Below are positions 2,873 to 19,759 of a DNA stretch of 64,000 nt, in pieces. The notes under the pieces were generated by a model that was given only the letters and a program-made list of their open reading frames with translations, was not told the origin of the DNA and made no database searches. The number at the start of each line of letters is the position of its first letter. Position 1 is the stretch's first letter. Source of the stretch: Clostridiales bacterium (GTDB taxonomy: Bacteria > Bacillota > Clostridia > Christensenellales > UBA3700). The translations under genes were made by a program, and so were the position numbers. The stretch lies in the NCBI GenBank assembly GCA_015055975.1, contig SVHF01000004.1:5390-69389 (forward strand), in the 5' to 3' direction.

Positions 2873-2873
2873 A

Positions 2874-3887: not shown

Positions 3888-3904
3888 ATCTCTTCTCCAT
3901 ATAT

Positions 3905-3933
3905 AAAAAACCGCCAACTTTTTTGTGGCGGCT
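3905..3933 (-). terminator. intrinsic terminator / candidate attenuator directly upstream of the aro operon RBS
   Basis: The minus strand reads GCCGCCAC-AAAAAAG-TTGGCGG followed by TTTTTT. It lies about 20 nt before the DAHP synthase RBS. Confidence 0.6.
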
Positions 3934-3982
3934 TTAATAATTTTTATCCTTGTATTATTTAATCTAGAAAACCGCGCACAAA

Positions 3983-4045
3983 TTAACAACTATAATAATA
4001 GCCGTAAAAGTTCCATGTATAGATGTTAAATAAACGTGTTTTCAT
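3983..4045 (-). CDS. candidate leader peptide [20 protein letters not shown] (20 aa, 8 aromatic residues)
   Basis: Hand translation of the minus strand from 4045 to 3983. It lies between a sigma70-like promoter and the terminator at 3905-3933. There is no Shine-Dalgarno sequence, and the ATG sits only about 9 nt after the -10 box. Confidence 0.4.
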
Positions 4046-4054
4046 ATCGATGTA

Positions 4055-4084
4055 ATTATAGTTTTTATCCTTTAATTTTGTCAA
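4055..4084 (-). promoter_or_regulatory. sigma70-type promoter (TTGACA, 18-nt spacer, TATAAT) for the aro leader/operon
   Basis: Perfect -35 (4084-4079) and -10 (4060-4055) hexamers on the minus strand. Confidence 0.5.
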
Positions 4085-4101
4085 TAATGTTTTGTATTAT
4101 T

Positions 4102-4416
4102 TTATAGTTTCTTAATTATTTCTCCTAAATCTCTTTTTCCAAATAATATTCTAACTATAACAATTCTCTTATTTACCATTTTATAAAAAGCAATATATTG
4201 ATCAATATAAATTTTTCTAATTATCGTGTCTTTTAGAATAGTATTATCTAACAACATTCCACTTTCTGGATACTCACAAATAATTTGTATCTTCTCTTCG
4301 AATAATTGTATAAACTCTATAGCAGCAGTTTTATTACACAACGTATTCGCTATGTAATTCACTATTATGTCTAAATCTTTCTTTGCCCTGCTAGCAAATT
4401 TATATTTATAGGCCAT
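4102..4416 (-). CDS. type II toxin, RelE/ParE family
   Basis: 104 aa. The sequence pattern (FASRAKKDLDIIVNYI ... IVRILFGKRD) is typical of ParE/RelE. It overlaps the upstream antitoxin gene by 11 nt. Confidence 0.8.
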   Translation of the reverse strand: MAYKYKFASRAKKDLDIIVNYIANTLCNKTAAIEFIQLFEEKIQIICEYPESGMLLDNTILKDTIIRKIYIDQYIAFYKMVNKRIVIVRILFGKRDLGEIIKKL

Positions 4417-4663
4417 ATTTCTCCTTGATTTCTTTAATTACTAACTCTCCGTCTTCAATTCTTCCAGCCTTTATATCTTCTAAGCCTTCTGCTAACATTA
4501 CCGCTTCATAAGCATCTCTCATTATTTTTTCATAATACTTCATATCCATGACAACTAAAGATCCATATCCATTTTTTGTAACAAACACTGGCTCCTCTTT
4601 TTCGTGACACATCTCTTCTATTTTTACCGTATCTTTTAAATCTCTCATTGGTACTATTTGCAT
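4406..4663 (-). CDS. type II antitoxin, Phd/YefM family
   Basis: 85 aa. The N-terminal part (PMRDLKDTVKI...EPVFVTKNGYGSLVVMDMKYYE) looks like Phd/YefM. A GGGAGGA RBS precedes it. Confidence 0.8.
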   Translation of the reverse strand: MQIVPMRDLKDTVKIEEMCHEKEEPVFVTKNGYGSLVVMDMKYYEKIMRDAYEAVMLAEGLEDIKAGRIEDGELVIKEIKEKYGL

Positions 4664-4695
4664 TTTTTATCCTCCCTACTGCTCACAGTTCCTTT

Positions 4696-4719
4696 TGTGT
4701 GTCTAAATTATAGCACACA
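4696..4719 (-). promoter_or_regulatory. TA promoter with a flanking inverted repeat (candidate autoregulatory operator)
   Basis: TGTGTG (4696-4701) and CACACA (4714-4719) bracket a minus-strand TATAAT at 4712-4707, about 45 nt upstream of the antitoxin ATG. Confidence 0.4.
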
Positions 4720-4753
4720 TTTAGCCACAATACAATAAAGCATATAAGTAATA

Positions 4754-5038
4754 TTAAACTATTTCGTATATTTTAAGGGATTTATCAAATCTAGATTTAT
4801 TCAAAACATCCAAAAGTGCTAATTCTTTGCATCTTGATGCATGCTTTTCTAAGCACTCTTTGTTTTCCCATCTTTCAAAAAATACAATTTCTTTATCTTC
4901 TTCGTTATATTCTGAAATATCAAAAGCAATACAACCCTTGTCAACATCTTTAGACATTTTTGCATGTTCAATTGCTGCTTCCATAAATATTGGAACATCT
5001 TTTTCTTCTAATTTATTTGTACATACTACGTATATCAT
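4754..5038 (-). CDS. antibiotic-biosynthesis-monooxygenase (ABM) fold protein
   Basis: ORF trimmed to the ATG at 5038 with a GGGGTGA RBS. About 94 aa with a ferredoxin-like ABM pattern (FFERWENKECLEKH). Confidence 0.6.
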   Translation of the reverse strand: MIYVVCTNKLEEKDVPIFMEAAIEHAKMSKDVDKGCIAFDISEYNEEDKEIVFFERWENKECLEKHASRCKELALLDVLNKSRFDKSLKIYEIV

Positions 5039-5085
5039 AATTTCACCCCTTTTCAATAATACCATACTTTAAGTATAATAAGGCT

Positions 5086-5316
5086 ATGGAAGATTTAAAT
5101 AAACCACTGAACGAAGACGAAAAAGATTTAATTATTAATTGGTTCATCAAAAACGAAGGACCAAGCGGAGAATCGCAGATTAAAACTTTTAGATTAAGAG
5201 ATAAATTAGATAAATCTCCAAAGACTTCTCGTGAATTAATAGAAACAAATATTAAAGCAAATTCTTATAAGATAGATTCTATGAGCTTTTATATGCTACT
5301 TATGGCCCATATTTAA
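5086..5316 (+). CDS. hypothetical 76-aa protein
   Basis: An ORF only, with a weak RBS. It converges on, and overlaps by 4 nt, the end of the 1594-aa gene. Confidence 0.3.
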   Translation: MEDLNKPLNEDEKDLIINWFIKNEGPSGESQIKTFRLRDKLDKSPKTSRELIETNIKANSYKIDSMSFYMLLMAHI

Positions 5317-8300
5317 ATAGGCGTTGTTTTGTGTTCAACAAACTCAATTGTTCCCATTATCAATCTAATTGAATAATTCATCGTAACATCTTGATTATTA
5401 CTATCGATGATTTTCAATTCTTCTATTTCGTTATATGCAGGTTCTCCAATTGTTACTTGTATTTCCTTGAATGTACATTCTATGCGATCGCCATTTTGTA
5501 AATAACCTTGAGTTACATTTGCATATCTTCCAACTATTTCATCGCCAACAATTTGCTTAAACGAATTTGTTGTTATTGTTATAACTTTAGGATTTGTTTG
5601 CAAAGCGATGCCCTTTATAAATACAACATAATTATTTGTTACATCTTGATTTGAATAATTCTTTACTATCCAATGTGCGTTTTGCTCTAAATCTCTACCA
5701 TATACAATTCCAGCATTTAAAGTTTCCAATGTGTCAATTAATTCAACTCTATATACATTAGATGGCTTTGTTGCGGCAACTATTTCATAGTTGTAGTTAT
5801 AGTAATAATAATCAACCTCGTATTTTTGCCCATTATAACTTCTCGATGATGCATAAACCATCAATTCAATAATATCTTTGCTTGTAACTATAACTTCGCC
5901 TTTAGATGTTATGATGTTATATTTTTCTGTAACATCTTCGCCTTTTTTATTGAACAATCTAAACGACCGAATCTCACTTTCACTTGTTCCAACCTCTGTA
6001 CGCTTTCCATATACTTCACAAGAATATGTATATCCTTGGCTCAATAACATTTCAAATAAGCCATGTCCAGATTCTGTTTCAACTTCGTTTTTTGCAACCA
6101 ATTCTGTTCCGTTATATTTTGCATAAGTTCTTACAGGATGAATATACAAATTCTTCACACTATAATAATCTTTTATGCCAGCATGATTGCCAGGTACAAT
6201 TTCTCCTTCTCCTGCTTCGCCGCCTTCTCCCGATTCGCCGCCTTCACCGCCAGAACCACTGCCTGATCCGCCTGCACCGCCAGAGCCTCTACCATCTGGG
6301 GCTGTTACTTCTACCATAACCCAGCCAACGCCTTCAATATATACTTCTACCCATGCATGAAGATTCTTATCTGTAATTGTTGTAATTTTGTTTGCTTCAT
6401 CAATATATACATAAGCCCCGCCTATAAATCTTGCTGGGATTCCCAATGCTCTATAAAGCATTGTTGCGGCCGTTGCATAATGACGACAAACACCTTCTTT
6501 GTAATCTCTTAAGAATGCTATTACAACATCTGATTCTGAATCTAATGATTTATCATAATCCATGTTGTATTTAGCTGAGCTTTGAATGAACTTAGCAACT
6601 TTACTAATAATTGCTGGATCTTCTTTTGTAAATCCGTTTTCTACAATAATTGAATTCAAATATGTTTTTAATCTGCCTTCTTCTAGTGTTAAGAAGTTTG
6701 CGTTAACATAATCTCTATATATAACTTCGTTATTTGCTAAAACGCCTGTTAAATGATTGTCCAATCTTATTGCAACATCTGTTTGTGTAATAAAGTGACT
6801 AAAGCTATATCCATCAACAGATTGCTCTAAATCTATCAAATCACCATCCATTAAATGCTCTGTATCTGTTGATAGATAATAAGGTCTAAATGGCATGTAT
6901 GTAAATGAATTGATAATCATGCTATTTGCTTGAGCTTCAATATTCTTTAGGTTAGTACCTGTTATATATTCTTGTGTATGAGAACCATCTAACACAATTG
7001 ATTCAGGGTTTATGATATCAAAGACTCTGCCTTGATATTGACTATATGAATATGACTTCAAATAGAAAGCTCCAACCTCACTTGATTGTACAGCCGCTAT
7101 AATTAGTGGTTCATCGCCATATCCTTCACCTTCTCCACCGCCGCCGGCAGGGTCCACTACTGTCAATGTCCCGACTTCAAATGTAACAGTATAATAACTT
7201 GGGTTTGCAAAATAAGCTCTAACAACTGCGTGGTTTGGAGATTGACCTATATTTGTTCTTTGGCCAATAACTGTTACTTCAACTATGTCACCTTCAAATA
7301 CTGGATTTTCAAATACTGATGTATCCAATCTATAATGATCATATTTCAAAGGTTCGCCATCATATATCTTTTCTTTGCTTCCTGTTATAATCTTCAATAC
7401 TCTTGGAATTATTTTGATAGCGCTTTTTGCATATGTAATATTATATACATCTTTAACGCTAACATTATTTGCATCTAGTATATCTATGATTGAACTTATA
7501 GAACTTTCCGTTTCCCCAATTTCTGTTCGACTTCCGTCAATTGTTACATTTACAACATGATCTCCTTCTAATAAGCCTGAGCCCAAAATGTCAATATCTG
7601 TTGGTTTATGTTCTTGTTTATCAAATTGCGCTTCGACATATTGTGGAGAAATTACAATTGGTCGTTTGTTTATAACAAAATCTTCTTTATAATCTTCACC
7701 AAACACAAGGTTATAGCAATCTCTATTTGGGGTTATTGTATCGCCTGCATAGATATCAGCAGCTTGAATCCATGTTTTATATGTGCCAATATCTCTAAAT
7801 GAGCCATATACTTGAGACACTACAATTCGATCCTCTTGTGCCAATGACTTACCGTTTGTAATTTGATAATCCTTGCTTGGTTGATGATATTGTCTATCAT
7901 AAATTATTTCTTCATGAATAGGAGTAATAACGATTGTTTTAACATTGACTCTGACTTCAACTGGAGATAATGCATCAAGTCCTAAATCATAATTTGCCGT
8001 AAAGTCTTTAGTGTCATCAAATATTGATGAGATTCTTAGACTTATAATCTTTGATTGACACGCGCCAACTCTTGTTTGGTAGTTGTCAAATACAACATCT
8101 CGTAATATATGATCTGTACAAAGACCGCTTGTGCTAAATGCTGGGCTATGTTTAAGTCCATCATAATCTCCATTAAAACTTAAAAGCGATAGATTTAATG
8201 CTTTTTTATTAATAGTAAATGTTGCTTTTGAATATTCTTGAGGAACGATTATATTGTAATAGTCCTGATATACATAATATCTAGATCCGCCTGCTCTAAT

Positions 8301-10097
8301 TTCTAAGCCAACTCCAATATCGCTTATATCTGTTTGATATACACCAGCATCCGTTTTTGCATATAAATCTACAAACACTATATCGTTAGAATCTGGCAAC
8401 AATCTATTTGTGTCATATTCTATTTGAGGTATTTGTTCTTCTCCGTTATATGTAACGCTTGATGATAATACTCTAATTTCAATATCTCTTTTTGTAATTC
8501 TTAAGGTGCCAAAATCAGTTTCTGTTATTTCATAATATGGAACAGATTCATCTTTTAACCATGCCTCATTTGGGGCACTTACATCCCACCCATCAAGTAT
8601 TGTTGTATCTAATTGTGGAAATTTTGATGATGGTAAAGAATTTGTGTTTAGAGGCGTTGGTATTGCTCCACCTGTATACAAAGGCATTCCATCATATTCT
8701 TTTGTTTGAGATGAAGTTTTCACTTTAATGTTTATTTTGTCGATTTGTATCGTTCCAGGCTTTATTGTCAATAAATAATTGCCACTTATTGATCCGTTTT
8801 GTTGCTTTACATAGAAATTCAATGGATTATCATAAGTACCTGGTATTACATATCCTAGATTTGCATATTTAACTAGATAATCTCCGCCATATAAAGTGCC
8901 TGCTAATATTTCATAGCTATCTACAGCAAGCGCATTATTATCAAATACTTTAGAAGCTGACCCTGTCTTTATAATAATTTCTTGTTCTTCAACTTTTAAT
9001 TGGCCATAATTAACTGTTATAGAATAGTTGTTCAAATTAGTATTTGCATTAGCGCTCACTTGCATATAGTTATATGTTGTTCCAACATTTGTAATTGAAG
9101 CAAAATTGCTAAATATAAAACCTTCGCCACTTGGGATTAGAGATTCATCATACAAAACAGTTTCATTTGTTAAAGGTTGAGAATCATAAACTTTTGTAGC
9201 ATTTTTTGTTTTAAATTCAATATTTATCTTCGCTATATCAACATATCCAAAAGTAAATGTTGGATTGTAATATCTATAAGTTACATCTTCGCCATCTTTA
9301 TTAACGATTTTAGATTCTGAATTGTTTGTAAATCTGCCAGCCGTTAATCCAAATGACTTTGGAGTTACTACAACTTTGTCACCATATCCAAGTTTCCCAG
9401 AGGTTATTCTAGCTTTATCTAATACTTCTTCTTTACCATCATAGGTTTTTGATAAATCATCCGTTTTTATCGTTATGTTTTGCTTTGTATAATTAATTTG
9501 CTTACTTTCTACGATAATGTTATACGCGTTTTTAACGTCTTTTCCTTCGCTATTTAATATCTGTAGCGTGTCAAGATCAGGTGTCATATTGATTGTTTTA
9601 TCATCAATATAATCTACGTCATATTGTTCACAGATAAGTCTGTCTTTGAAAGATAATTCTGCATTCAAATAAATGCTATTTCCATAAACTATTGAATCGT
9701 TCTTTATTGTGATGTATAAGTCTTTTTTCTTAATAACCACTTTTGATGCTTTACTATATTCTTTTGCACCAAAAGATCTATTAGATACAGCTCTTATTTC
9801 ATATTCACCTGGTGTTTGAGGTAGACCTTCTTGCCATTGCCCATTTAATGTATGATATTCATAATTTGTCTTATTAAATATACTCTTTGCAAAAAATCCT
9901 ACATCTTCACCATATGTATATTCTGCCTTATTAAGTTCTACATCTGTAATTAGACCATTGATTCCTAAGAACACTGAAACAATTGTAAGAGCGACGATAA
10001 GGCATGCGATTATTAATAATCTATGTTTGATTATTGATGCTTTAATCGATGCTAGCGTTTCTAAACGCTTCTTATAAGAATCGTATGTCATTCCCAT
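5313..10097 (-). CDS. giant (1594 aa) membrane-anchored surface protein: repeat array, transglutaminase-like Cys-His-Asp core, Ig-like C-terminal stalk
   Basis: - One N-terminal TM helix.
- About 10 repeats with a K-x-YDG-x-PL-type signature (TKVYDSQPL, SKVFDNNAL, TKEYDGMPL, EKIYDGEPL).
- Transglutaminase core EGVCRHYATAATMLYRALGIPARF...NLHAWVEVY...GWVMVEVT.
- Gly/Ser/Glu linkers.
- TAATG overlap with the upstream gene. Confidence 0.85.
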   Translation of the reverse strand: MGMTYDSYKKRLETLASIKASIIKHRLLIIACLIVALTIVSVFLGINGLITDVELNKAEYTYGEDVGFFAKSIFNKTNYEYHTLNGQWQEGLPQTPGEYEIRAVSNRSFGAKEYSKASKVVIKKKDLYITIKNDSIVYGNSIYLNAELSFKDRLICEQYDVDYIDDKTINMTPDLDTLQILNSEGKDVKNAYNIIVESKQINYTKQNITIKTDDLSKTYDGKEEVLDKARITSGKLGYGDKVVVTPKSFGLTAGRFTNNSESKIVNKDGEDVTYRYYNPTFTFGYVDIAKINIEFKTKNATKVYDSQPLTNETVLYDESLIPSGEGFIFSNFASITNVGTTYNYMQVSANANTNLNNYSITVNYGQLKVEEQEIIIKTGSASKVFDNNALAVDSYEILAGTLYGGDYLVKYANLGYVIPGTYDNPLNFYVKQQNGSISGNYLLTIKPGTIQIDKINIKVKTSSQTKEYDGMPLYTGGAIPTPLNTNSLPSSKFPQLDTTILDGWDVSAPNEAWLKDESVPYYEITETDFGTLRITKRDIEIRVLSSSVTYNGEEQIPQIEYDTNRLLPDSNDIVFVDLYAKTDAGVYQTDISDIGVGLEIRAGGSRYYVYQDYYNIIVPQEYSKATFTINKKALNLSLLSFNGDYDGLKHSPAFSTSGLCTDHILRDVVFDNYQTRVGACQSKIISLRISSIFDDTKDFTANYDLGLDALSPVEVRVNVKTIVITPIHEEIIYDRQYHQPSKDYQITNGKSLAQEDRIVVSQVYGSFRDIGTYKTWIQAADIYAGDTITPNRDCYNLVFGEDYKEDFVINKRPIVISPQYVEAQFDKQEHKPTDIDILGSGLLEGDHVVNVTIDGSRTEIGETESSISSIIDILDANNVSVKDVYNITYAKSAIKIIPRVLKIITGSKEKIYDGEPLKYDHYRLDTSVFENPVFEGDIVEVTVIGQRTNIGQSPNHAVVRAYFANPSYYTVTFEVGTLTVVDPAGGGGEGEGYGDEPLIIAAVQSSEVGAFYLKSYSYSQYQGRVFDIINPESIVLDGSHTQEYITGTNLKNIEAQANSMIINSFTYMPFRPYYLSTDTEHLMDGDLIDLEQSVDGYSFSHFITQTDVAIRLDNHLTGVLANNEVIYRDYVNANFLTLEEGRLKTYLNSIIVENGFTKEDPAIISKVAKFIQSSAKYNMDYDKSLDSESDVVIAFLRDYKEGVCRHYATAATMLYRALGIPARFIGGAYVYIDEANKITTITDKNLHAWVEVYIEGVGWVMVEVTAPDGRGSGGAGGSGSGSGGEGGESGEGGEAGEGEIVPGNHAGIKDYYSVKNLYIHPVRTYAKYNGTELVAKNEVETESGHGLFEMLLSQGYTYSCEVYGKRTEVGTSESEIRSFRLFNKKGEDVTEKYNIITSKGEVIVTSKDIIELMVYASSRSYNGQKYEVDYYYYNYNYEIVAATKPSNVYRVELIDTLETLNAGIVYGRDLEQNAHWIVKNYSNQDVTNNYVVFIKGIALQTNPKVITITTNSFKQIVGDEIVGRYANVTQGYLQNGDRIECTFKEIQVTIGEPAYNEIEELKIIDSNNQDVTMNYSIRLIMGTIEFVEHKTTPI

Positions 10098-12271
10098 TAA
10101 TACACTCTCAATGTTCCAGAATATGTCGTGATATTAAAGTTTGCAGTAATATCATTTCCATCTGAATCTTTTATTATTACGTTTTGTATATAATTTTCAG
10201 CCACACCCTTGTTTGTCAATATCGCTGGCATTTCTACTTCAACATCAAGACCTAAAATTTCCGTATCAATTGAATATTCATGACACTCAAGTGGTTCTCC
10301 ATTATATGCTTTTTGTGCAGATCCTGCCGTTATATACATATAAGCTCTATCGATAGTAATAACCCCGAAGTTATAATCTATCTCATAGTTTTGTGTGACA
10401 TCTTTGCCGTTTCTTGTAACTGTTACTAGATAATAATTAACGTATGTTCCAGCATTTTTAAATGTTGAGAAATCTAATGTAAATACATCGTTTGAGTTCC
10501 TTGCGCCAGAAATTGTGTAGTCATCAAAGGTGTATTCTTCATTTGTGTATTCAACCAGCTTGCTTGAACTTGAAATGCTTATTAAATATTCATAAACATG
10601 TAAATAGCCAAATTTTGATTCATCTATACCATATTGATCAGTTACGTCTTTTCCTGTGTTATCTTCAATTATTGGATAAATCATATTCTTGACATATCCA
10701 TATTCTGTAATTGTTCCAACGTAATCATATCCAACAACTGAGTGGAATGATTGTAAATCGCCTAAAACTTGAACTGACGTTCCTTTACCTGTTAGAGGAG
10801 TTCCATCACCTTTTTTAGATTTGTTTTCTGTAACAATGGTAAGTTCCGTCCAAACCTGTTTAAATAATCCATCCCCTAATGAAAAATCGAATCTTGATGT
10901 TATATCTACATCATTTTCATCAAATATTCTAAATTCTTGTATTTTAGTTGCACCTGCACTTCCAAGTGCTGTTTCTTCAGAATTATGGTATTGGAAAGTT
11001 ATATAACTTCCATTTTTTTGTGCATATCCATAGACTTTTGCTGTGTAATAATAGCCTTTTTCGTATATTTGCTCAATAGTAGTTCCGCTCAAGAATCCAC
11101 CATTTCTAGAATCAAGTAAGACTCCTTCAACTTTTGTGTTTAAAGGATAATAATAACCATCCGCGCCATCTCTTGGCACATATGAATCAAATGGCACTAT
11201 TTCATTTGTTTGCTTTTGTTTATCATCGCTTTTGTTTGGAGTTGTCATTGTAGGATCTATTGGGACCCAGCCAACTCCATCTACATATACTTCAACCCAG
11301 GCATGCGCATCACCACCTGTTACTTCCACTTCTACATTTGCAGCTACTTCTGCACAATATCCTTCAACTCTTCTTGCAGGAATACCTAAAGTTCTATATA
11401 GCAACACAGCCGATGATGCAAAGTGTTGACAAATACCTTCTTTATATTTAGTTAAAAAGGCAACTATAACATCGCTTTCTTTGTTCATTGCAGGATTGAA
11501 GTTTAGATTATATTCTGCTTGATTTGATATATATGTACTGACTTTTTTATATATTCCATCTGTATTTTTTGACCAACCTTGCTCACGAATTATTTGTCTC
11601 ATAAGCGTTATTGTTGATTCAGGAACGTTAATATAGTTTGCATAAACAAATTCTCTATAGGCTTGTTCTTCTTGAACATGCTCTGTTCTTGAAGAAGACC
11701 CATATAAGGCTTTTAGCGAATCTGCAGTAAACTTTCCTGCTCCATAATATTTCATAGCGTATGTATCACTTACTGAACCAATAGATTCTATATCGCTCTT
11801 TTGAATAGATTTAGCTTCACTATTTATTGAATGATAATATGGGACTAAATAATCTTTTCTAACAGGCGTAATTGTCATGTCATATTCACTTGCGCCATGT
11901 AAAGAACAATATATTGAAGTTAGATAGTCCATTGAATATTGACCATCTAATAATCCATCATATTTTTTAGGTGTTCTCCATTTGTTATTTAAAATATCTC
12001 CAAAAGCAAAGCTCTTTAAATAAATAAGACCATTTGATGTAGCTGTTACTCTATAGGCAACGGATTCATCTTTTTCTGCTCCATTTATATCATTGAATTC
12101 GCCAGATCTATCTAATGCGTCAATTAAATCGTTGGCGCCAGCTTTTTTTGTACCTTCGCCAAAATTAACAAAGAAGCGAATCATAAATCCTGCAAGAAGT
12201 ATGATAAGTAGTATAACTACTGCACCATAAATACTTATTAGATTATTATTCCCCTTCTTTTGTTTTTCCAT
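10097..12271 (-). CDS. membrane-anchored transglutaminase-like protein (724 aa) with C-terminal Ig-like repeats
   Basis: N-terminal TM helix. Core EGICQHFASSAVLLYRTLGIPARR...DAHAWVEVYVDGVGWVPIDPT. The pre-core region is paralogous to residues ~960-1260 of the 1594-aa protein. Confidence 0.85.
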   Translation of the reverse strand: MEKQKKGNNNLISIYGAVVILLIILLAGFMIRFFVNFGEGTKKAGANDLIDALDRSGEFNDINGAEKDESVAYRVTATSNGLIYLKSFAFGDILNNKWRTPKKYDGLLDGQYSMDYLTSIYCSLHGASEYDMTITPVRKDYLVPYYHSINSEAKSIQKSDIESIGSVSDTYAMKYYGAGKFTADSLKALYGSSSRTEHVQEEQAYREFVYANYINVPESTITLMRQIIREQGWSKNTDGIYKKVSTYISNQAEYNLNFNPAMNKESDVIVAFLTKYKEGICQHFASSAVLLYRTLGIPARRVEGYCAEVAANVEVEVTGGDAHAWVEVYVDGVGWVPIDPTMTTPNKSDDKQKQTNEIVPFDSYVPRDGADGYYYPLNTKVEGVLLDSRNGGFLSGTTIEQIYEKGYYYTAKVYGYAQKNGSYITFQYHNSEETALGSAGATKIQEFRIFDENDVDITSRFDFSLGDGLFKQVWTELTIVTENKSKKGDGTPLTGKGTSVQVLGDLQSFHSVVGYDYVGTITEYGYVKNMIYPIIEDNTGKDVTDQYGIDESKFGYLHVYEYLISISSSSKLVEYTNEEYTFDDYTISGARNSNDVFTLDFSTFKNAGTYVNYYLVTVTRNGKDVTQNYEIDYNFGVITIDRAYMYITAGSAQKAYNGEPLECHEYSIDTEILGLDVEVEMPAILTNKGVAENYIQNVIIKDSDGNDITANFNITTYSGTLRVY

Positions 12272-13356
12272 TATGCGTTATTAACAATGTTTCTAATGTA
12301 TTGCTTGCATCTTGGCATTGCTTCGTCTCCAAATAGCTCGTTTAATTTGTCTACTAACCCATCTGCTCCATTTTTTACATAGATTGGGTTCTTCATCTCT
12401 AACTTTCTTAATATCTTCTTAGATAACATATCATCTAGCGCATCTAACTCTTCTCCACCACATCCTATATAGATTGGTACATACTTGTTTATTTGCATCA
12501 TTATTCTGTTACCAAATGTAACTTGGAAATGCTTCGTTAGATAATCGTCTAATTCCTTTAACTTTGCTTTGTTTCTCTCTGTTAGAGAATTTTCTTGTTG
12601 TGCATTAGATATTAATCTATCGAAATCCTTTGCACTTAAATGTATGTTTTGTGTGTTTTGTCCTTTAAATGGTTCACACTTGTTATCTAAGTTCAATATC
12701 ATGGCTCTATCGTATACCTTGTCGGATATAGCAAATGTAGAATCATCGTTGTTTGCTGTTCCAATAAACCACATGTTTGTTGGTAATTGAATTTGTCCAT
12801 CTTTTAGATTGCTTGGGTCTGTTCCCCATTTGTCTGAAACTACTTCCATGAATCTTTCATCTGATCTTGGCAATTCCAATAAAGATAAGAATTCAGCAAA
12901 ATAATATTCAACTCTTGCAATGTTCATTTCATCTAACACAGTTATATAGATATCTTCTGAATAATTTGCTTCATACATCTTCTTTAGAAGTGCTGTTTCA
13001 TTAAAGTGCTTTGTGAATTCATTGTAGTATCCAATTAAGTCTGTTCTTTCCTTCCACATAGGTTGAATTGGTATAACTGTTGATGGATTCTCTACAAATC
13101 TTCCAAATGCATATGCAAGTGATGTCTTACCCGTACCACTCATACCTTGAAGTATCATGATGTGTGAAACTCCAAGTCCTGCTATGAATGCTCTTATGTC
13201 TTCTTCTCTATAGAACAAGCCTAATTCATTTGCTGCATAGTTTCTAAAATCATCGCAAAACATCTTTAAGGTGATGTTGTTTATGTAATCTTCTTTTGAA
13301 TACGTATCCTTCTTTTTGTCTATTTGCTTTAAAATACTAAACCTTGTGTCTGTTGT
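12269..13356. repeat. copy 1 of a 1,088-bp direct repeat (partner at 15209-16296)
   Basis: A line-by-line comparison at an offset of 2,940 nt finds only two differences (12307 G vs A, 13342 C vs T). Confidence 0.95.
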
Positions 13357-13668
13357 TATCTTCTTTGGATTTAAAGTAGATTGAGGAACACCTATTTCTC
13401 CGTGTCTTCTTTCATATCTATAAATTAGATTGCTTTGTTTTCTAACTTTCTTATATACGACAATGATTAAAATAGCTAAGAAAATTGGAACGCCAATAAG
13501 CATTGCAATTAGATATGCAAAGTCTATTATGTTTTGATCGATGATATATTGTTTAATCTCGTCCATTTTGGCAACTAAAACAACTTCTAAAACGAAAACC
13601 AAAATCGCAATGATTATTGCAATGATAAGGACTAACTTAATTGGGTCAAATTGCTTACTTTTCTTCAT
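12271..13668 (-). CDS. membrane-anchored AAA+ ATPase, McrB/MoxR-like (paralog 1)
   Basis: - Start trimmed to the ATG at 13668, with a GGGGAGAAG RBS.
- Two N-terminal TM helices.
- Walker A GMSGTGKT and Walker B VLDEMNIARVEYYFAEFLSLLE.
- FIGTANNDDSTFAISDKVYDRA, which matches the McrB-type layout. Confidence 0.8.
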   Translation of the reverse strand: MKKSKQFDPIKLVLIIAIIIAILVFVLEVVLVAKMDEIKQYIIDQNIIDFAYLIAMLIGVPIFLAILIIVVYKKVRKQSNLIYRYERRHGEIGVPQSTLNPKKITTDTRFSILKQIDKKKDTYSKEDYINNITLKMFCDDFRNYAANELGLFYREEDIRAFIAGLGVSHIMILQGMSGTGKTSLAYAFGRFVENPSTVIPIQPMWKERTDLIGYYNEFTKHFNETALLKKMYEANYSEDIYITVLDEMNIARVEYYFAEFLSLLELPRSDERFMEVVSDKWGTDPSNLKDGQIQLPTNMWFIGTANNDDSTFAISDKVYDRAMILNLDNKCEPFKGQNTQNIHLSAKDFDRLISNAQQENSLTERNKAKLKELDDYLTKHFQVTFGNRIMMQINKYVPIYIGCGGEELDALDDMLSKKILRKLEMKNPIYVKNGADGLVDKLNELFGDEAMPRCKQYIRNIVNNA

Positions 13669-15211
13669 CTTTCTTCTCCCCAAATAGTATTTCTTTCTTT
13701 AGACGCTTTTTAGTCTTCTTCCAAGCCATCTTATAGTAGTCGCCAACTATTTTGTATTCCTTCTCTATTAACTTAAACTTATCTTCGTCTGTATAATCCT
13801 TTTCTTTCACAGCTAATCCAAGCTTTGTTCTAAAAGCATTGTTTTGAGTCATCAATTGATCTTTTTCTTTAGTATTTTCTTCAAGCTTTTGATTTAGCGA
13901 TGCAATATTTTCTTCAAGCTCTTGAATCTTGCTTTCTAAATCTTCCTTTTCGAATGTCATTACATCAATTTCATCTGCGTGTGCTTTGTCTTTTTTAGCC
14001 ATTGATTCAAGATATTCTCTTTCTTTAGCTTTAGCCCCATCTTTTAAACTTACAATCTCGCCCTTTAGAGAATCTATCTTTTCTGTTTGTTTTGCAGCTA
14101 AACTATTTGCAGACTTTAGAGCAACTTCTTTTGCTTCTAATTGCTCAATTCTTTCATTTAGTGAAACTAAATATTCATCAAGGCTCTTTCCGCTTAGTTT
14201 TGCCTTGCTCTTTAGGTATTCAAGTCTTTCTTTTAATTCTTCTGCTCTTTGCTCTTCTTCAAGCTTTAATTGCTTTTCAAGCTCTAATTGCAATCCTTCT
14301 TTTAAATCTAACGAGTGCATTTGCATCATAAATAACAATAAAAGCACTGCGTTATTTATATCGTCTTCTGCGCTTGCATCTAATTGCTTTTCAAAAGCTT
14401 CTCTTGTTATGGTGTATCCTGGTGCTGTATATGATGAGATATATTCATATAAAGCTAGTGCATATTTAAAGTTTGTTTCCATCTTTAAGACATTTGTCTT
14501 TGTGATTGGTGGCTTTATCATAGGCACTTTTGAAACTTCAACCATGAGTGGCGTAGATAGCAATTTCAAAATAGCATTTAAAACATCTTCAATTCTTTCA
14601 ACAACTTTTGCATTGTCGCTATCTTTAGATAAAGACATGTTCTCATCTTCAATGTTTAGTGTATATTTGATATTTCTTTGCTTTGTCTTATATGTCGATG
14701 CAACATCTAAAACTGTATAGTACTTTCCAGATGATTGAGTGATTTTGTTATATCTTTCTGTTGTGAAGTCTCTAAGATAAGTTAAAAGAAGATATAGGAA
14801 TCTATTTTCATAAACTGCATAATCACTTAGCTTTTCAACTGTATAAATCTTTTCTGGTTTTACTTGATCAGTTTCTTCGTCAACTTCCTTAATTAAAGAT
14901 GCATGCTTTGCTAAATGGCTAATTGATTCTTTAGAAATGCTCTTAGTCTTTTCAATTAATACTACTTCCCCATTAGTTCTAATGAATTGTCTTTCTTGAG
15001 AAATTGCCTTTTCAATGTATTTTAGATTATTCTCAATTTCACTTATCCAATCTTCACTAACTTCGCATTTAACCTTTTCAATTGTTAATCTTGCCTTCTT
15101 ATTTGATCCAAGCGTTCTAATTTGGCGTAGAAAATCTTGGATGCCCTTATCTGAAAGCGCAATTTTCTTATATTCTATAAACGCTCTATAGTAATAATCG
15201 TTTGTCTTCAT
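13655..15211 (-). CDS. 518-aa protein: globular N-terminal domain plus a long K/E/L-rich coiled coil
   Basis: The ORF sits between the two AAA+ paralogs, with overlapping start and stop codons on both sides. The N-terminal domain contains AVYENRFLYLLLTYLRDF. The C-terminal ~200 aa are heptad-like. Confidence 0.75.
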   Translation of the reverse strand: MKTNDYYYRAFIEYKKIALSDKGIQDFLRQIRTLGSNKKARLTIEKVKCEVSEDWISEIENNLKYIEKAISQERQFIRTNGEVVLIEKTKSISKESISHLAKHASLIKEVDEETDQVKPEKIYTVEKLSDYAVYENRFLYLLLTYLRDFTTERYNKITQSSGKYYTVLDVASTYKTKQRNIKYTLNIEDENMSLSKDSDNAKVVERIEDVLNAILKLLSTPLMVEVSKVPMIKPPITKTNVLKMETNFKYALALYEYISSYTAPGYTITREAFEKQLDASAEDDINNAVLLLLFMMQMHSLDLKEGLQLELEKQLKLEEEQRAEELKERLEYLKSKAKLSGKSLDEYLVSLNERIEQLEAKEVALKSANSLAAKQTEKIDSLKGEIVSLKDGAKAKEREYLESMAKKDKAHADEIDVMTFEKEDLESKIQELEENIASLNQKLEENTKEKDQLMTQNNAFRTKLGLAVKEKDYTDEDKFKLIEKEYKIVGDYYKMAWKKTKKRLKKEILFGEKKDEEK

Positions 15212-16296
15212 TATGCGTTATTAACAATGTTTCTAATGTATTGCTTACATCTTGGCATTGCTTCGTCTCCAAATAGCTCGTTTAATTTGTCTACTAACCC
15301 ATCTGCTCCATTTTTTACATAGATTGGGTTCTTCATCTCTAACTTTCTTAATATCTTCTTAGATAACATATCATCTAGCGCATCTAACTCTTCTCCACCA
15401 CATCCTATATAGATTGGTACATACTTGTTTATTTGCATCATTATTCTGTTACCAAATGTAACTTGGAAATGCTTCGTTAGATAATCGTCTAATTCCTTTA
15501 ACTTTGCTTTGTTTCTCTCTGTTAGAGAATTTTCTTGTTGTGCATTAGATATTAATCTATCGAAATCCTTTGCACTTAAATGTATGTTTTGTGTGTTTTG
15601 TCCTTTAAATGGTTCACACTTGTTATCTAAGTTCAATATCATGGCTCTATCGTATACCTTGTCGGATATAGCAAATGTAGAATCATCGTTGTTTGCTGTT
15701 CCAATAAACCACATGTTTGTTGGTAATTGAATTTGTCCATCTTTTAGATTGCTTGGGTCTGTTCCCCATTTGTCTGAAACTACTTCCATGAATCTTTCAT
15801 CTGATCTTGGCAATTCCAATAAAGATAAGAATTCAGCAAAATAATATTCAACTCTTGCAATGTTCATTTCATCTAACACAGTTATATAGATATCTTCTGA
15901 ATAATTTGCTTCATACATCTTCTTTAGAAGTGCTGTTTCATTAAAGTGCTTTGTGAATTCATTGTAGTATCCAATTAAGTCTGTTCTTTCCTTCCACATA
16001 GGTTGAATTGGTATAACTGTTGATGGATTCTCTACAAATCTTCCAAATGCATATGCAAGTGATGTCTTACCCGTACCACTCATACCTTGAAGTATCATGA
16101 TGTGTGAAACTCCAAGTCCTGCTATGAATGCTCTTATGTCTTCTTCTCTATAGAACAAGCCTAATTCATTTGCTGCATAGTTTCTAAAATCATCGCAAAA
16201 CATCTTTAAGGTGATGTTGTTTATGTAATCTTCTTTTGAATACGTATCCTTCTTTTTGTCTATTTGCTTTAAAATACTAAATCTTGTGTCTGTTGT
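15209..16296. repeat. copy 2 of the 1,088-bp direct repeat (partner at 12269-13356)
   Basis: See copy 1. The two copies are about 99.8% identical. Confidence 0.95.
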
Positions 16297-16506
16297 AACT
16301 TTCTTTTCCTTTCCTTTAGCTAATGCTTTATCTGGTTCGAATTCAACAGCTATTTGAGATACGCTCTTTAAGTCTTTATTTTGTCTTGATTGAACAATAA
16401 GCAAAATAACCATTATTGTTATGAACGCAATAATTAACGTTGAATAAATAATAATTGCATATGTTGAAGTCAAGACGTTGACTAATATTTCTAAAAAATT
16501 ATCCAT
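15211..16506 (-). CDS. membrane-anchored AAA+ ATPase, McrB/MoxR-like (paralog 2)
   Basis: 431 aa with a GGAGG RBS. It has one N-terminal TM helix that differs from paralog 1. From TTDTRFSILKQ to the C-terminus the protein is identical to paralog 1. Confidence 0.8.
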   Translation of the reverse strand: MDNFLEILVNVLTSTYAIIIYSTLIIAFITIMVILLIVQSRQNKDLKSVSQIAVEFEPDKALAKGKEKKVTTDTRFSILKQIDKKKDTYSKEDYINNITLKMFCDDFRNYAANELGLFYREEDIRAFIAGLGVSHIMILQGMSGTGKTSLAYAFGRFVENPSTVIPIQPMWKERTDLIGYYNEFTKHFNETALLKKMYEANYSEDIYITVLDEMNIARVEYYFAEFLSLLELPRSDERFMEVVSDKWGTDPSNLKDGQIQLPTNMWFIGTANNDDSTFAISDKVYDRAMILNLDNKCEPFKGQNTQNIHLSAKDFDRLISNAQQENSLTERNKAKLKELDDYLTKHFQVTFGNRIMMQINKYVPIYIGCGGEELDALDDMLSKKILRKLEMKNPIYVKNGADGLVDKLNELFGDEAMPRCKQYIRNIVNNA

Positions 16507-17854
16507 CTATTTCCTCCAACTCTTCATTATCTATTTCATCGACTGGCGCATCTTCAACCTTGTCTTTGACTACTTCTTGTTCTTCATATACATAATCCAT
16601 TAAGACATTTGCTAAAGTTTCATTCTTGTTGCCAATCAATTGCTTTAACTTCTTTGTTGCATCCTTGTCTTTAGAGCTACTAATAATTGGGGCAATTAAT
16701 GGTAATATTCTTTGAGCTATAACAAGATTCTTAAATTCTGAAGAATCTATTCCAAATGAACCTAATAGTGTTATGTATCTTTCAATTTCGACATATTCTT
16801 TATTTGTAAGCTTACAATCGTTTTGAATTGCCATTAAGCTATCTATCGCTTTCCAATCTTCTTCGCTTAGCTTATATGAACCTTTCATAGAATCGATTCT
16901 ATATAAATAGTCATAAACAGCATCGCATGCTGGCAATTGCAAATCTGTTGATGTTGTCTTGCTAAAGGCAATATCTAAAATTGTTGATGCTCTTCTTAAT
17001 TCTTGTGAATAAGTCTTAACTGTTTCTAAGTTCTCAACAGCAACAAATACAATGTGAGATGGCACCATCAATGATTGGTGTCTGTATTTCAATTCAATAT
17101 CGTTGTATCTAATATTTAATACTGGAATTGCGTTTGCTAATATTTCTTGTTTTTCTGCGCTGAAATTCTTTAGAAGAATAATTCTCAATTCTTCTATTCC
17201 TAATTCTTGTTCTAATGCTTTAACTAAAGATTCAACATTGCTTATATCAACAAAATCTAATTCTTTAACTTCTAAAGATAGTGCAGTTAATGCTTTTATG
17301 GCTTTTGATCCTAAAGCAATATCTGATGTATTTATGGTAATGAATTTATTTGCAAATATTGAAGAAATAATATTGATTGCATCCTTTTCCTCAACTGCAA
17401 CGCCATTTGCTTTTAGACTAGAGATATAAGTATCTTTAATTTGGCTAAATTCAACATAATTTTTGATGATTACTGCATTCTTTCTTTCTCTCTTTGAAAC
17501 ATTAAATGCTGAATCAAAGAATTCATCAATTGCTTTTGAATTGCTCTTTTGGGCAAATCTTGATGTTGTAATTTCTATTTGTGCAATCTTATCTTTTGAA
17601 TGCTTTGCTACCTTTTTCCTCAACGCATGCGCTCCACATGCAAATACCATGAATAATATAAAACTTACAACAGCTAGAATTAAACAAGTAAATGCCCAAA
17701 CTGTAGATAAATCACCCTTTCCTGTTGCTAATTTGTCTATAGTTGGGATAAATAAAAATCCAAGTCCTGCAGCTAATAAGATAAATAAAGCTATCTTCCA
17801 ACCTTTATCGTAAGTTTTTAGAGGTGATCTTCTATAAGAAACATATGCTTTCAT
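16499..17854 (-). CDS. hypothetical membrane protein (451 aa; 2 N-terminal TM helices, cytoplasmic body, acidic tail)
   Basis: AGGAGG RBS and an 8-nt overlap with the downstream AAA+ gene. I recognise no motif. Confidence 0.7.
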   Translation of the reverse strand: MKAYVSYRRSPLKTYDKGWKIALFILLAAGLGFLFIPTIDKLATGKGDLSTVWAFTCLILAVVSFILFMVFACGAHALRKKVAKHSKDKIAQIEITTSRFAQKSNSKAIDEFFDSAFNVSKRERKNAVIIKNYVEFSQIKDTYISSLKANGVAVEEKDAINIISSIFANKFITINTSDIALGSKAIKALTALSLEVKELDFVDISNVESLVKALEQELGIEELRIILLKNFSAEKQEILANAIPVLNIRYNDIELKYRHQSLMVPSHIVFVAVENLETVKTYSQELRRASTILDIAFSKTTSTDLQLPACDAVYDYLYRIDSMKGSYKLSEEDWKAIDSLMAIQNDCKLTNKEYVEIERYITLLGSFGIDSSEFKNLVIAQRILPLIAPIISSSKDKDATKKLKQLIGNKNETLANVLMDYVYEEQEVVKDKVEDAPVDEIDNEELEEIDG

Positions 17855-17866
17855 ACTTTATACCTC

Positions 17867-18880
17867 CTATTTAACTAAAGAATCATAATCAATTCTTTGC
17901 CCTTCATAATAGAAGGTGATGTTGCTTGGGTATTGGAACGCACCTTTTTCTATAGTAGGTTTGCTATGCACAAATCTTACTTCTGTAATTCCTGTACAAC
18001 CAAGGAACGCATTTGCTGCAATCTTCTTTGCATTGTAGATTTGCACATATTTTAAATTTGCACAACTCTCTACTGTGTTTGCTTTAATTTTGCTTGTATC
18101 TAATATTATTGATTGCAAATTGCTGCAACTTTCTATTGCTTTGCTTTCAATATTTTTTGCTTCTATATCCAAACTATATAAAGTTCTTGCGTTATAGAAT
18201 GCTAAAGACTCAACTTTATCTAAGTTATAGATTCTAACCGTTGGCACATTAGAATTACTAAATGCTTCCGATTTAATTCCTTTAATCTTAGTTGCCGAAT
18301 TCGTAAAATCTAAACCTCCGCTAACATATGAAGCAACTTTCTTTATATACAACTTTCCAACTGAAACTTCTTGAAGAGTTACTCCTTGATAATAAGCAGA
18401 TTCACCAGTGTTATTCCCTATCCAAATTTCAGTTTGTTGATAGAATGGTAAATAGATAGAGTATATTGCCCCCGTTATAACTAAAAGTAATATTGCAAAC
18501 ACTCCAACAACTGCCCACATTTTATTTGAAGAATCATGGACTTTAGCTGAACTTGCTTTCTTTGTTTTTAATTCTTTAACATTTTGAACATCTATTTGTT
18601 CGCAATTTGGATCAACGCTAATAATTTTTGATTTTCCAAAAGTCTCTCCTGTTTTTGCATATTGGCCTTCAACTGTTACTTGCTTTGTTTCTATAACATT
18701 ACCTGTTGAATCTTTTACGACAAGTGAGTATGAAACGCCATATACAGGGGTTTGTAATCCGTTTCTAAATTCTACTAAAACTTCTTTTTTGTCATCTTCT
18801 GTATAGATAACATATCTTGTTGCACAAAGGGTTTTAGGATTCGCGTTAAGCACGCAGGCTTTATAAATAATCTTAGCCAT
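17867..18880 (-). CDS. single-pass membrane protein with an extracellular BspA-type leucine-rich repeat domain
   Basis: 337 aa with a central TM helix (MWAVVGVFAILLLVITGAIY). The C-terminal repeats have the form xAFxxCxNLxxI (ESLAFYNARTLYSL, SKAIESCSNLQSI, ANAFLGCTGITEV). Confidence 0.75.
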   Translation of the reverse strand: MAKIIYKACVLNANPKTLCATRYVIYTEDDKKEVLVEFRNGLQTPVYGVSYSLVVKDSTGNVIETKQVTVEGQYAKTGETFGKSKIISVDPNCEQIDVQNVKELKTKKASSAKVHDSSNKMWAVVGVFAILLLVITGAIYSIYLPFYQQTEIWIGNNTGESAYYQGVTLQEVSVGKLYIKKVASYVSGGLDFTNSATKIKGIKSEAFSNSNVPTVRIYNLDKVESLAFYNARTLYSLDIEAKNIESKAIESCSNLQSIILDTSKIKANTVESCANLKYVQIYNAKKIAANAFLGCTGITEVRFVHSKPTIEKGAFQYPSNITFYYEGQRIDYDSLVK

Positions 18881-19628
18881 TCTTCTTTACCCCCTTTTGT
18901 TGCTTATATTTAATCTTTGGACAAAATGTTATTTTTGTAAAAGCCCACATAATTCCAACGCAGGCAAAATATGAAAGTATTGGGACTACTAGCGCCGCTA
19001 TGCTATATGTTAGTTCATAATTCTTATTCCACAAAACCATAAAAGATGAATCACTACCATATATTCCAAGAGCTAAAAACCCAATAGTCGTTAATGCAGC
19101 TGGAAGCATAGTTAAAGAAGCTACAAATGAATATGATGTAATTTGCTTTTTTGCAATGCTGTGCTCGTTAATTTTTACATCGTCTACATTTAAAACTTTG
19201 ATTTGAATTGCTTTCGTTCTTTCAGATAAACGAATTAAATCTAATTCATTATTAGATACTTCTCTTTGTGTGACTATAATTGTCTTAAATGGTTCAAAAC
19301 CTTCTTCTTTTTCATCAAACATTGTAACTTCGTAAACAATACGTTCAACTTTTGTTGCCAATATTGCTCTTAAATAGCAATTGATTCCCTTTGTCATTAC
19401 AACGGCTTTGTTGATGTACTTTTGAGATAATTCATCATTTACTTGGAAAATCATGACCCTTCCATCTACACTTCTGTCGTCTTTAATCATAGTATCTGGA
19501 TCTTTAAACACTTTCTTATTCATGAAGAACTTCTTTGGGTATACGAAAAAGTTTAATGAAAGCATAACTATGAATAATGCGGCAAATAGACCGACGAAAT
19601 AGTCTATTTCAATAAGATCAAATAACAT
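18873..19628 (-). CDS. hypothetical membrane protein (251 aa; TM, ~130-aa soluble domain, 2-3 TM), first gene of the operon
   Basis: GAGAGGGA RBS. A ~190-bp promoter-bearing intergenic region lies upstream. Confidence 0.7.
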   Translation of the reverse strand: MLFDLIEIDYFVGLFAALFIVMLSLNFFVYPKKFFMNKKVFKDPDTMIKDDRSVDGRVMIFQVNDELSQKYINKAVVMTKGINCYLRAILATKVERIVYEVTMFDEKEEGFEPFKTIIVTQREVSNNELDLIRLSERTKAIQIKVLNVDDVKINEHSIAKKQITSYSFVASLTMLPAALTTIGFLALGIYGSDSSFMVLWNKNYELTYSIAALVVPILSYFACVGIMWAFTKITFCPKIKYKQQKGVKKNG

Positions 19629-19730
19629 TAGTCCCTCTCTTTTTTAATATAGTTAGTTCGTTAGTTTTTCATTGATTGCGAATATTTTAATTGCCGTGCT
19701 TTCTAGATAAGCTTGCGCTCGCATTTTTCT

Positions 19731-19759
19731 ATTATAGATAAAAATAGGGGCGCGCGCAA
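19731..19759 (-). promoter_or_regulatory. candidate sigma70 promoter of the 8-gene operon (TTGCGC, 17-nt spacer, TATAAT)
   Basis: Hexamers at 19759-19754 and 19736-19731 on the minus strand, about 100 nt upstream of the first ATG. Confidence 0.45.

Follow-up and report, generated by a model that had tools for sequence, protein, structure and literature searches.

Which function connects twin membrane-anchored AAA+ proteins with giant surface proteins that carry transglutaminase-like cores? The question is raised by eight genes (g1-g8) on the minus strand of a 64,000-nt stretch from the genome of a Clostridiales bacterium (assembly GCA_015055975.1, contig SVHF01000004.1, positions 5,390 to 69,389), and this whole stretch is referred to as the window. 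A first-pass annotation made from the sequence had described these genes as a translationally coupled envelope operon and had placed it nearest to the triad of MoxR, DUF58 and transglutaminase proteins. The analysis presented here points instead to McrBC, the textbook GTP-dependent restriction motor. As judged from sequence profiles, motifs and synteny, g4 and g6 are McrB-family GTPases and not MoxR proteins, g5 is a McrC homologue that appears to have no nuclease, and g3 is a third McrB-like paralogue, a predicted pseudo-GTPase. We regard it as moderately probable that the operon encodes a multi-subunit transmembrane machine, which is built on a McrBC-derived GTPase module, is devoid of nucleic-acid-directed parts and serves the surface transglutaminase (TGase) proteins.

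Organization and conservation of the operon

The eight open reading frames (ORFs) are, in the order of the operon:

18873-19628, minus strand: g1, ORF of 251 aa, membrane protein
17867-18880, minus strand: g2, ORF of 337 aa, membrane protein with a leucine-rich repeat (LRR) domain
16499-17854, minus strand: g3, ORF of 451 aa, predicted pseudo-GTPase
15211-16506, minus strand: g4 (GTPase-A), ORF of 431 aa, predicted GTPase
13655-15211, minus strand: g5, ORF of 518 aa, putative McrC homologue
12271-13683, minus strand: g6 (GTPase-B), predicted GTPase; 470 aa if translation starts at the TTG at 13683, 465 aa with the ATG at 13668
10097-12271, minus strand: g7 (TG1), ORF of 724 aa, TGase-like surface protein
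5313-10097, minus strand: g8 (TG2), ORF of 1594 aa, TGase-like surface protein

All eight ORFs and the junctions listed in the first-pass annotation were recovered. From g1 onward the genes are joined by an 8-nt overlap, a 12-nt gap and a second 8-nt overlap; three further junctions (g4/g5, g6/g7 and g7/g8) are 1-nt TAATG overlaps, and g5 and g6 overlap by 14 nt if the ATG at 13668 is used. Hydropathy analysis revealed transmembrane (TM) segments in seven of the eight products, g5 being the exception. A GAGGG ribosome-binding site precedes the ATG of g1 at 19628, and a terminator scan of the operon region yielded no convincing internal terminator, as had been noted before. It had also been proposed that the operon is preceded by one promoter-like site:

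19731-19759, minus strand: TTGCGC-17 nt-TATAAT upstream of g1, promoter-like, read from the sequence

This sequence is present, but it constitutes weak evidence: the -35 hexamer of the site (19759-19731) matches the consensus at three of six positions, a consensus scan missed it, and promoter-like sites in the operon region are not enriched compared to shuffled sequence. The claim of a single transcript therefore rests on the gene overlaps and on synteny, which suggest that g1-g8 are co-transcribed.

The conserved unit was defined by gene-by-gene comparison and by unbiased clustering of all ORFs in 80 loci. The order C4-short (the family of g1), C3 (the family of g2), pseudo-GTPase, GTPase-A, DUF2357-coiled-coil protein, GTPase-B, TG1 and TG2 was found in about 50 loci, which belong to different species-level genomes and have non-conserved flanks. 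The recurring unit may begin with an optional multi-TM protein of ~500 aa ahead of C4-short. As nothing outside the unit is conserved, the boundaries of the operon in the window appear to be those of a conserved evolutionary module. The earlier description as one tightly coupled operon, which a lack of neighbourhood conservation in related genomes was to have overturned, is thus supported by gene overlaps and by recurrence of the unit across dozens of species-level genomes.

The GTPase family itself is large, with more than 8,000 matches in a word-indexed search, 751 representative clusters at E≤1e-30 in an exhaustive search and at least 551 matching stretches among one genome per GTDB species. 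Essentially all of the matches listed are from gut or rumen Clostridia, which are labelled Christensenellaceae, Borkfalkiaceae, Pumilibacteraceae, Oscillospiraceae and Eubacteriales, and the cultured Anaerocaecibacter muris is among the carriers. Across Christensenellales- and Oscillospiraceae-labelled genomes the GTPase proteins are ~55-68% identical.

Twin GTPases of the McrB family

The GTPase-A protein g4 consists of one N-terminal TM segment and a cytoplasmic McrB-family AAA+ module, while g6 (GTPase-B) has two N-terminal TM segments followed by a GTPase module that is identical to that of g4 at the protein level. In both proteins the N-terminus is made up of these one or two TM helices and a short linker, and a nucleic-acid-binding specificity domain as in McrB is absent. 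The motifs are GMSGTGKT for Walker A, LDEMN for Walker B and the signature NNDD, and Walker A, Walker B and N272-N-D-D275 were found to be invariant across 23 sequences of the family. The first-pass annotation had read the ATPases as membrane-anchored, duplicated and of McrB-type motif layout, and the TM segments and invariant motifs bear this out.

Several library and profile searches assign the module. Pfam AAA_5 is matched by both g4 and g6 (g4 1.4e-6) and the NCBIfam McrB equivalog gives a weak match to the GTPase (1e-5), while the best library match of the module is the PADLOC model PDC-M26A at 6.5e-44; this match is partial, its best stretch covering profile positions 312-431 of 724. Compared with PDB sequences, the family profile (A1) matches only E. 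coli McrB (6hz4, 6ut6, 7vsr; E=1e-3), and this alignment runs without gaps from Walker A to the signature motif and places N-N-D-D opposite N-T-A-D of McrB. The motif thus aligns as NxxD, an alternative reading being NxD followed by D. An AlphaFold2 (AF2) model of the GTPase, built from a shallow multiple sequence alignment (MSA), reached a predicted local distance difference test (pLDDT) score of 65, and in a Foldseek search with this model McrB was the best match (6ut6_D, E=2e-3) and RavA of the MoxR family the second (7e-3). Use of GTP and formation of rings by g4 and g6 would follow the example of McrB.

A homogenised motor module on two different anchors

The genes of g4 and g6 share a direct repeat:

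12269-13356: direct repeat copy 1, 1,088 nt, spanning the GTPase module of g6 and the TAATG junction
15209-16296: direct repeat copy 2, 1,088 nt, spanning the GTPase module of g4 and the TAATG junction

The copies lie 2,940 nt apart and differ at two positions (12307 and 13342). The repeat comprises the whole cytoplasmic GTPase module and its end coincides with the TAATG at which the following gene is coupled to each copy, while g4 and g6 differ only in their N-terminal membrane anchors.

This arrangement was found to be general. Among the 30 loci in which GTPase-A and GTPase-B are both complete, the two genes are 93.9-100% identical at the DNA level over their final ~1.1 kb (median 99.86%, 30/30 loci), while the same ~1.1-kb region compared between genomes shows a median identity of 66% and a maximum of 87%. 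This identity ends sharply at ~1.1 kb from the stop codon. Among the N-terminal anchors, those in the same position of the operon group together and not those of the same genome, with normalised scores of 0.77 for A-A, 0.73 for B-B and 0.29 for A-B comparisons, and the pattern of one TM segment in A and two in B is seen in about 28 of the 30 pairs. From position-specific anchors and near-identical modules within genomes it follows that the duplication is old and that the motor module, synonymous sites included, is continually homogenised by gene conversion. The twin ATPases are thereby not the ordinary paralogues that they had been taken for. From this pattern it also seems that shared partners (g5 and g3) need to meet one and the same motor surface on either type of anchor, as could be the case in rings that are mixed or bridged.

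With short reads, assembly can make near-identical repeats look more alike than they are, an effect for which the observed difference was judged to be far too large. An alternative explanation is that independent units, namely a membrane McrBC-like pair, adhesin and LRR genes, were juxtaposed fortuitously and that faulty assembly produced the twin ATPases from one gene. Assemblies of metagenome-assembled genomes (MAGs) indeed often break or collapse at the 1.1-kb repeat, and many MAG contigs break or start at GTPase residue ~75, the repeat boundary; one locus of the set (L005) equals another (L004) minus one repeat unit. This explanation is highly improbable, since the genes are joined by overlapping start and stop codons and occur in the same order between non-conserved flanks in about 50 loci, and since the copies differ at two positions in the window and are only 93.9-98.5% identical in several other genomes, including the genome of the A. 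muris isolate (98.5%). As two different anchors are in addition conserved by position across genomes, an assembly artefact as the origin of the twin ATPases was rejected.

The loci L004 and L005, which are from the same species and different samples, are 99.8-99.96% identical, with exactly one repeat unit missing from L005. Positions 1-2805 of L005 correspond to 7521-10326 of L004 and positions 1722-6537 to 12158-16973, and L005 lacks g5 and the GTPase-B anchor. The difference is either a recombinational deletion, i.e., a population polymorphism, or an assembly collapse. Variant motor arrangements were also observed, with GTPase-A and g5 and no GTPase-B in L017 and with g5 and GTPase-B and no GTPase-A in L072 and L081; these are either real or repeat-induced mis-assemblies.

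The McrC-like partner g5

The product of g5 is a soluble protein, in which residues 1-300 form a DUF2357 domain that is followed by a coiled coil of ~170 aa and a basic C-terminal motif. DUF2357 is the N-terminal domain of McrC that binds and activates the McrB GTPase (Bell et al. census, PMC11090510). The Pfam DUF2357 model matches g5 with 30 bits (cutoff 23.3) and it matches all 31 of the 31 members of the g5 family that were scanned. The coiled coil differs in length between genomes, while the C-terminal motif W-K-K-T-K-K-x-I/L-R/K (~45 aa) is conserved. A PD-(D/E)xK nuclease was not matched in g5 by Pfam, NCBIfam or PADLOC models, and beyond residue ~300 the coiled coil and the basic motif leave no room for one. 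The designation of g5 as a coiled-coil protein missed the McrC-like domain, and g5 is best described as a putative nuclease-less McrC homologue. An AF2 model of the g5 domain (pLDDT 83) shows a helical bundle with long β-hairpins. A search with a profile of the g5 N-terminal part against PDB sequences returned noise only (Lys-tRNA ligase and others, E≥0.03).

A predicted pseudo-GTPase and two small, probably cytoplasmic domains

The first three products had been listed as TM proteins of 251 aa, with an LRR domain and of 451 aa. The TM segments are supported by hydropathy, but the 451-aa protein g3 is more than a plain TM protein and carries, besides two TM segments, a cytoplasmic McrB-like module. 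A comparison by hhalign of the profile that combines g3 with the larger proteins found in its place (A5) and the GTPase profile A1 gave a probability of 99.85% and E=1.1e-30 over 326 columns, with g3 residues 128-424 aligned to GTPase residues 92-429. In most genomes the place of g3 is taken by a protein of ~1,100 aa, whose TM segment is preceded by GH3_C and Fn3-like ectodomains (Pfam) and whose C-terminal domain aligns in blastp to the whole GTPase and to g3. The single g3 sequence gave no significant hhalign match to the GTPase profile, which was resolved once the syntenic large proteins joined the profile. A homologue search with g3 retrieved three close relatives only and no MSA useful for structure prediction. 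As Walker A, Walker B and the NxxD motif (NNDD) are all replaced in g3, this degenerate third paralogue is predicted to be a pseudo-GTPase.

The g1 protein has three TM segments (11-29, 169-187, 209-227) and a soluble domain of ~130 aa. It has no match in Pfam, NCBIfam, PADLOC or PHROG and belongs to the conserved three-TM family C4-short (hhalign probability 98.3%, E=1.4e-14). A homologue of the soluble domain of g1 makes up the N-terminus of g2 (probability 94.5%, E=8e-8). In g2, this conserved domain of ~115 aa is followed by one TM segment (121-139) and by the extracellular BspA-type LRR domain that had been predicted (Pfam LRR_5, 1.9e-20). The family C3, to which g2 belongs, has ectodomains of 0 to ~2000 aa depending on the genome. 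By the positive-inside rule, the soluble domain of g1 and the N-terminal domain of g2 are probably cytoplasmic.

Two giant surface proteins with transglutaminase-like cores

The g7 protein has a short basic cytoplasmic tail, one TM segment (17-35), an extracellular core (residues 239-340) and C-terminal repeat domains, while g8 begins with a cytoplasmic helix of ~25 aa and one TM segment (28-46) and has its core (residues 1166-1263) between Gly-rich linkers. Both had been annotated as TGase-core surface proteins, which is confirmed by Pfam Transglut_core matches far above the cutoff of 23 bits (g7, 7.4e-22 and 78.1 bits; g8, 2.8e-19 and 69.8 bits) and by the conservation of Cys and His. The two proteins are homologous around the core with 28% identity over 424 aa. 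About 8-12 K-x-Y-D/N-G motifs were counted in g8, in agreement with the approximately ten YDG-type repeats reported initially. In the proposed Cys-His-Asp triad, the Cys and His positions hardly vary among about 75 sequences and Asp is present in g7 (C-H-D), but the third residue is Glu in g8 (C-H-E) and in most homologues, as TG1 proteins comprise 44 CHE and 9 CHD and TG2 proteins 18 CHE, 2 SHE and 1 AHE.

The N-terminal cytoplasmic helix of TG2 (g8 residues 1-27; M-x-Y-x-x-Y-x-x-basic-h-x-K-h-A...) lies directly before the TM segment and is kept across 51 loci. This tail and the TM sequence of TG1 are conserved, while the ectodomains are only ~25% identical.

Proposed function

In the transmembrane machine that we propose, g4 and g6 would be catalytically competent GTPases, with one and two TM segments, respectively, i.e., identical AAA+ modules on different anchors. 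By analogy with McrC, the DUF2357 domain of g5 would dock on the GTPase ring and stimulate hydrolysis, and its coiled coil may bridge rings. The pseudo-GTPase g3, which is mostly fused to an extracellular GH3_C/Fn3 module, would join on the cytoplasmic side, to which g1 and g2 would contribute their two small paralogous domains. On the outer side, the LRR ectodomain of g2 would stand beside the two N-terminally anchored giants with Cys-His-(Asp/Glu) cores among Ig-like repeats. GTP hydrolysis in the membrane-tethered ring may act, by way of the TM helices and the conserved tail that TG2 has in the cytoplasm, on the surface TGase proteins, which could thereby be assembled, anchored, activated or remodelled; the machine would then be an apparatus for surface fibres or adhesins. 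The union of the products in one complex, the direction of coupling and an enzymatic role of the TGase cores are inferences.

A physical coupling of the cytoplasmic and surface parts is favoured because the TG2 tail and the TG1 TM segment are conserved despite ~25% ectodomain identity, and because the same GTPase/DUF2357 pair appears to serve other surface components in a related locus (L086, see below). A bolder version is put forward tentatively, and its chances are rather doubtful: the operon might represent a new class of transmembrane GTPase machines, in which a McrBC-derived ring builds, tensions or remodels giant surface fibres that are covalently cross-linked by way of the Cys-His cores, i.e., an adhesion or motility apparatus parallel to pilus motors that evolved from a restriction enzyme. 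Two gene-converted catalytic paralogues on different anchors would share the ring with a pseudo-GTPase, the ectodomain of which is glycan-binding-like.

Several points weigh against the proposed machine. The GTPase model is of moderate quality, and at a pLDDT of only 65 the structural margin of McrB over RavA is weak. The profile and structure searches that the first-pass annotation had suggested assigned McrB and DUF2357, but Foldseek of the g5 model against the PDB retrieved no McrC and nothing below E=0.07, so that the McrC assignment rests on sequence profiles. The third triad residue, mostly Glu, is atypical for the Transglut_core family. TG1 and TG2 have only short tails in the cytoplasm, and any coupling must therefore run mainly via the TM helices. 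A "single" form of the unit, without g5 and GTPase-B, occurs in L015, L021, L028, L031, L051 and L057, so either g5 and the second anchor are dispensable or these loci are decaying or mis-assembled. Finally, the strongest library match of the GTPase is a candidate defence protein of PADLOC.

An alternative is a function in defence against phages or other mobile elements, by a system of the McrBC (Type IV restriction-like) lineage that would act at the cell surface or membrane, with the ectodomains sensing phage, the GTPase as transducer and the TGase cores or a membrane perturbation as effector. The pairing of a McrB-like GTPase with a DUF2357 partner, the PDC-M26A match at 6.5e-44, ectodomains that are hypervariable compared to a conserved motor, the loss of g5 and GTPase-B in some lineages and a ParE-type toxin gene ~900 nt downstream of the operon would fit such a role. 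We consider it quite unlikely. A nuclease, HEPN, DNA-binding or other cytoplasmic effector domain was not found in the eight products by Pfam, NCBIfam and PADLOC searches, PHROG scans likewise gave no nuclease or DNA-binding domain and no PHROG match was obtained, and the flanks are ordinary, non-conserved metabolic genes. The GTPase is ~60% identical across families and syntenic in hundreds of stretches of one class, which looks vertical and housekeeping-like and not patchy. In the PADLOC scan, g5 and every other operon product apart from the GTPases missed all models. The candidate assignment to a known defence system (PADLOC PDC-M26) was rejected on account of the partial match and of the missing further components, and a prophage origin was rejected as PHROGs contained nothing relevant. 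That the operon acts as a restriction system is unlikely.

If the proposed transmembrane machine is real, a GTPase and an activator of the McrBC type would have lost their nuclease and DNA-binding parts and become a membrane complex in the service of surface proteins. The carriers are hundreds of mostly uncultured gut and rumen Clostridia, the surface biology of which matters for host association. The operon would thereby offer an entry point to the role of membrane-linked McrBC relatives (CoCoPALM) and to the question why AAA+ proteins repeatedly partner with bacterial TGase-like membrane proteins. Independently of its function, partial-gene concerted evolution across an order-level radiation with distinct anchors kept constitutes an unusually clean natural example, and homogenised modules imply a strong constraint, i.e., the same motor on both anchors.

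Neighbouring features of the window

Further features were observed within and around the operon:

13929-14720, plus strand: Ser/Phe-rich ORF of 263 aa, antisense to the coiled-coil part of g5
4102-4663, minus strand: gene pair of a ParE-family toxin (104 aa, Pfam 1.2e-10) and an overlapping upstream ORF of 85 aa
4754-5065: ABM-domain gene
22850-22929, plus strand: ZMP/ZTP riboswitch (pfl motif, 62.8 bits), directly upstream of an ORF of 745 aa
41988-42145, minus strand, and 43173-43244, plus strand: three tRNA genes by Rfam, unrelated to the operon

The antisense ORF is almost certainly no gene and owes its existence to the GAA/AAG-rich coding strand. The ParE pair, the 85-aa member of which is probably the antitoxin, lies ~650 nt downstream of the operon, beyond the ABM-domain gene. 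In the close relative L004, the 745-aa ORF has its counterpart in a PFL-like glycyl-radical enzyme that is followed by a radical-SAM activase, a known association of this riboswitch.

Comparison with known systems

The MoxR-DUF58-transglutaminase triad (yeaC-yeaD-yebA in B. subtilis, the TgpA operon in P. aeruginosa) resembles the operon in that an AAA+ gene stands beside genes for extracytoplasmic TGase-core membrane proteins, and the function of both is poorly understood. McrB and MoxR belong to the same AAA+ subgroup. With RavA as second-best structural match and TGase-core membrane proteins encoded directly downstream, the operon might be a functional analogue of the triad, in which a McrB-type chaperone matures or inserts the membrane TGases in place of MoxR. 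This is unlikely. The GTPases of the window match AAA_5 in Pfam and McrB in NCBIfam and carry no AAA_3/MoxR signature, their sequence matches are to McrB only, and their partner has DUF2357, while a DUF58 or vWA domain was not matched in any of the products by Pfam or NCBIfam, as the first-pass annotation had already pointed out. The TGases are single-pass type II giants with repeats and without TgpA-type multi-TM or DUF4129 parts, the ATPases are membrane-anchored and duplicated, and in the closest homologous system the linked genes are those of pilin and signal-peptidase proteins and not of TGases. As a mechanism, such an analogy overlaps with the proposed transmembrane machine, but as family membership it fails; membership in the MoxR family was rejected for the missing AAA_3 and DUF58/vWA matches. 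The triad is therefore not the nearest known arrangement: McrBC is nearer, as shown by the DUF2357 partner, the McrB profile matches and 45% identity to the GTPase of L086.

The PADLOC candidate PDC-M26A comes from the same clade as the window GTPase, which matches a part of its 724-position profile; GTPase relatives with long N-terminal extensions match it to the same partial extent.

With McrBC itself the operon shares the AAA+ Walker A, Walker B and N-x-x-D signature, McrB as top structural match and an adjacent partner gene with DUF2357 (g5). In contrast to McrBC, the GTPases of the window carry TM anchors in place of the N-terminal DNA-binding domain, and the McrC homologue has a coiled coil and a basic tail in place of the PD-(D/E)xK nuclease. 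The operon furthermore appears to encode three McrB paralogues, one of them predicted to be catalytically dead, and the GTPases sit among membrane and surface proteins with no detectable link to DNA.

The view that the composition matches no described system agrees with the literature, in which we found no account of a McrB-transglutaminase or McrB-membrane operon of this composition, of PDC-M26 or of follow-up work on CoCoPALM; as far as the sequence assignments hold, a McrBC-derived, membrane-linked operon with TGase surface proteins would thus be newly described. The McrBC census links no clade to transglutaminases and its supplements do not mention them (PMC11090510).

The closest published outline is CoCoPALM, a group of McrBC relatives from the NxD clade with a membrane-associated GTPase and a coiled-coil McrC homologue, which was named and is uncharacterised (PMC11090510). 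Reported features are a fusion of the GTPase to an FtsB-like TM segment and coiled coil, an association with signal-peptidase-family or pilus-assembly proteins and coiled coils on both homologues (PMC11090510). Positions 1-10872 of L086 (ena:ERZ23500064 scaffold_10) match this outline as far as the brief description goes, with N_methyl pilin-like, Peptidase_S24/S26-like, TM-GTPase and DUF2357 proteins. Along the entire module, the TM-GTPase of L086 (525 aa) and the GTPase of the window share 45% identity (hhalign E=1e-99). The DUF2357 protein of L086 (P0237), the most distant g5 match, is 24% identical to g5 of the window and ~27-30% identical to g5-family proteins in related loci; beyond these two, L086 shares no other proteins with the window operon. 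The operon thus resembles CoCoPALM in combining a membrane McrB-like GTPase and a coiled-coil McrC homologue that are tied to extracytoplasmic parts and not to nucleases. It differs in several details: the GTPase has a TM anchor without a DivIC/FtsB match in Pfam and without an obvious coiled coil in its ~40-residue linker, so that coiled coils are present on the McrC homologue and not evident on the GTPase, and its motif N-N-D-D aligns as NxxD, although a reading as NxD followed by D is possible. Peptidase_S24/S26 and N_methyl have no match among the eight products. The window module is accompanied by two giants with TGase cores, an LRR protein, a pseudo-GTPase and a further copy of the GTPase.

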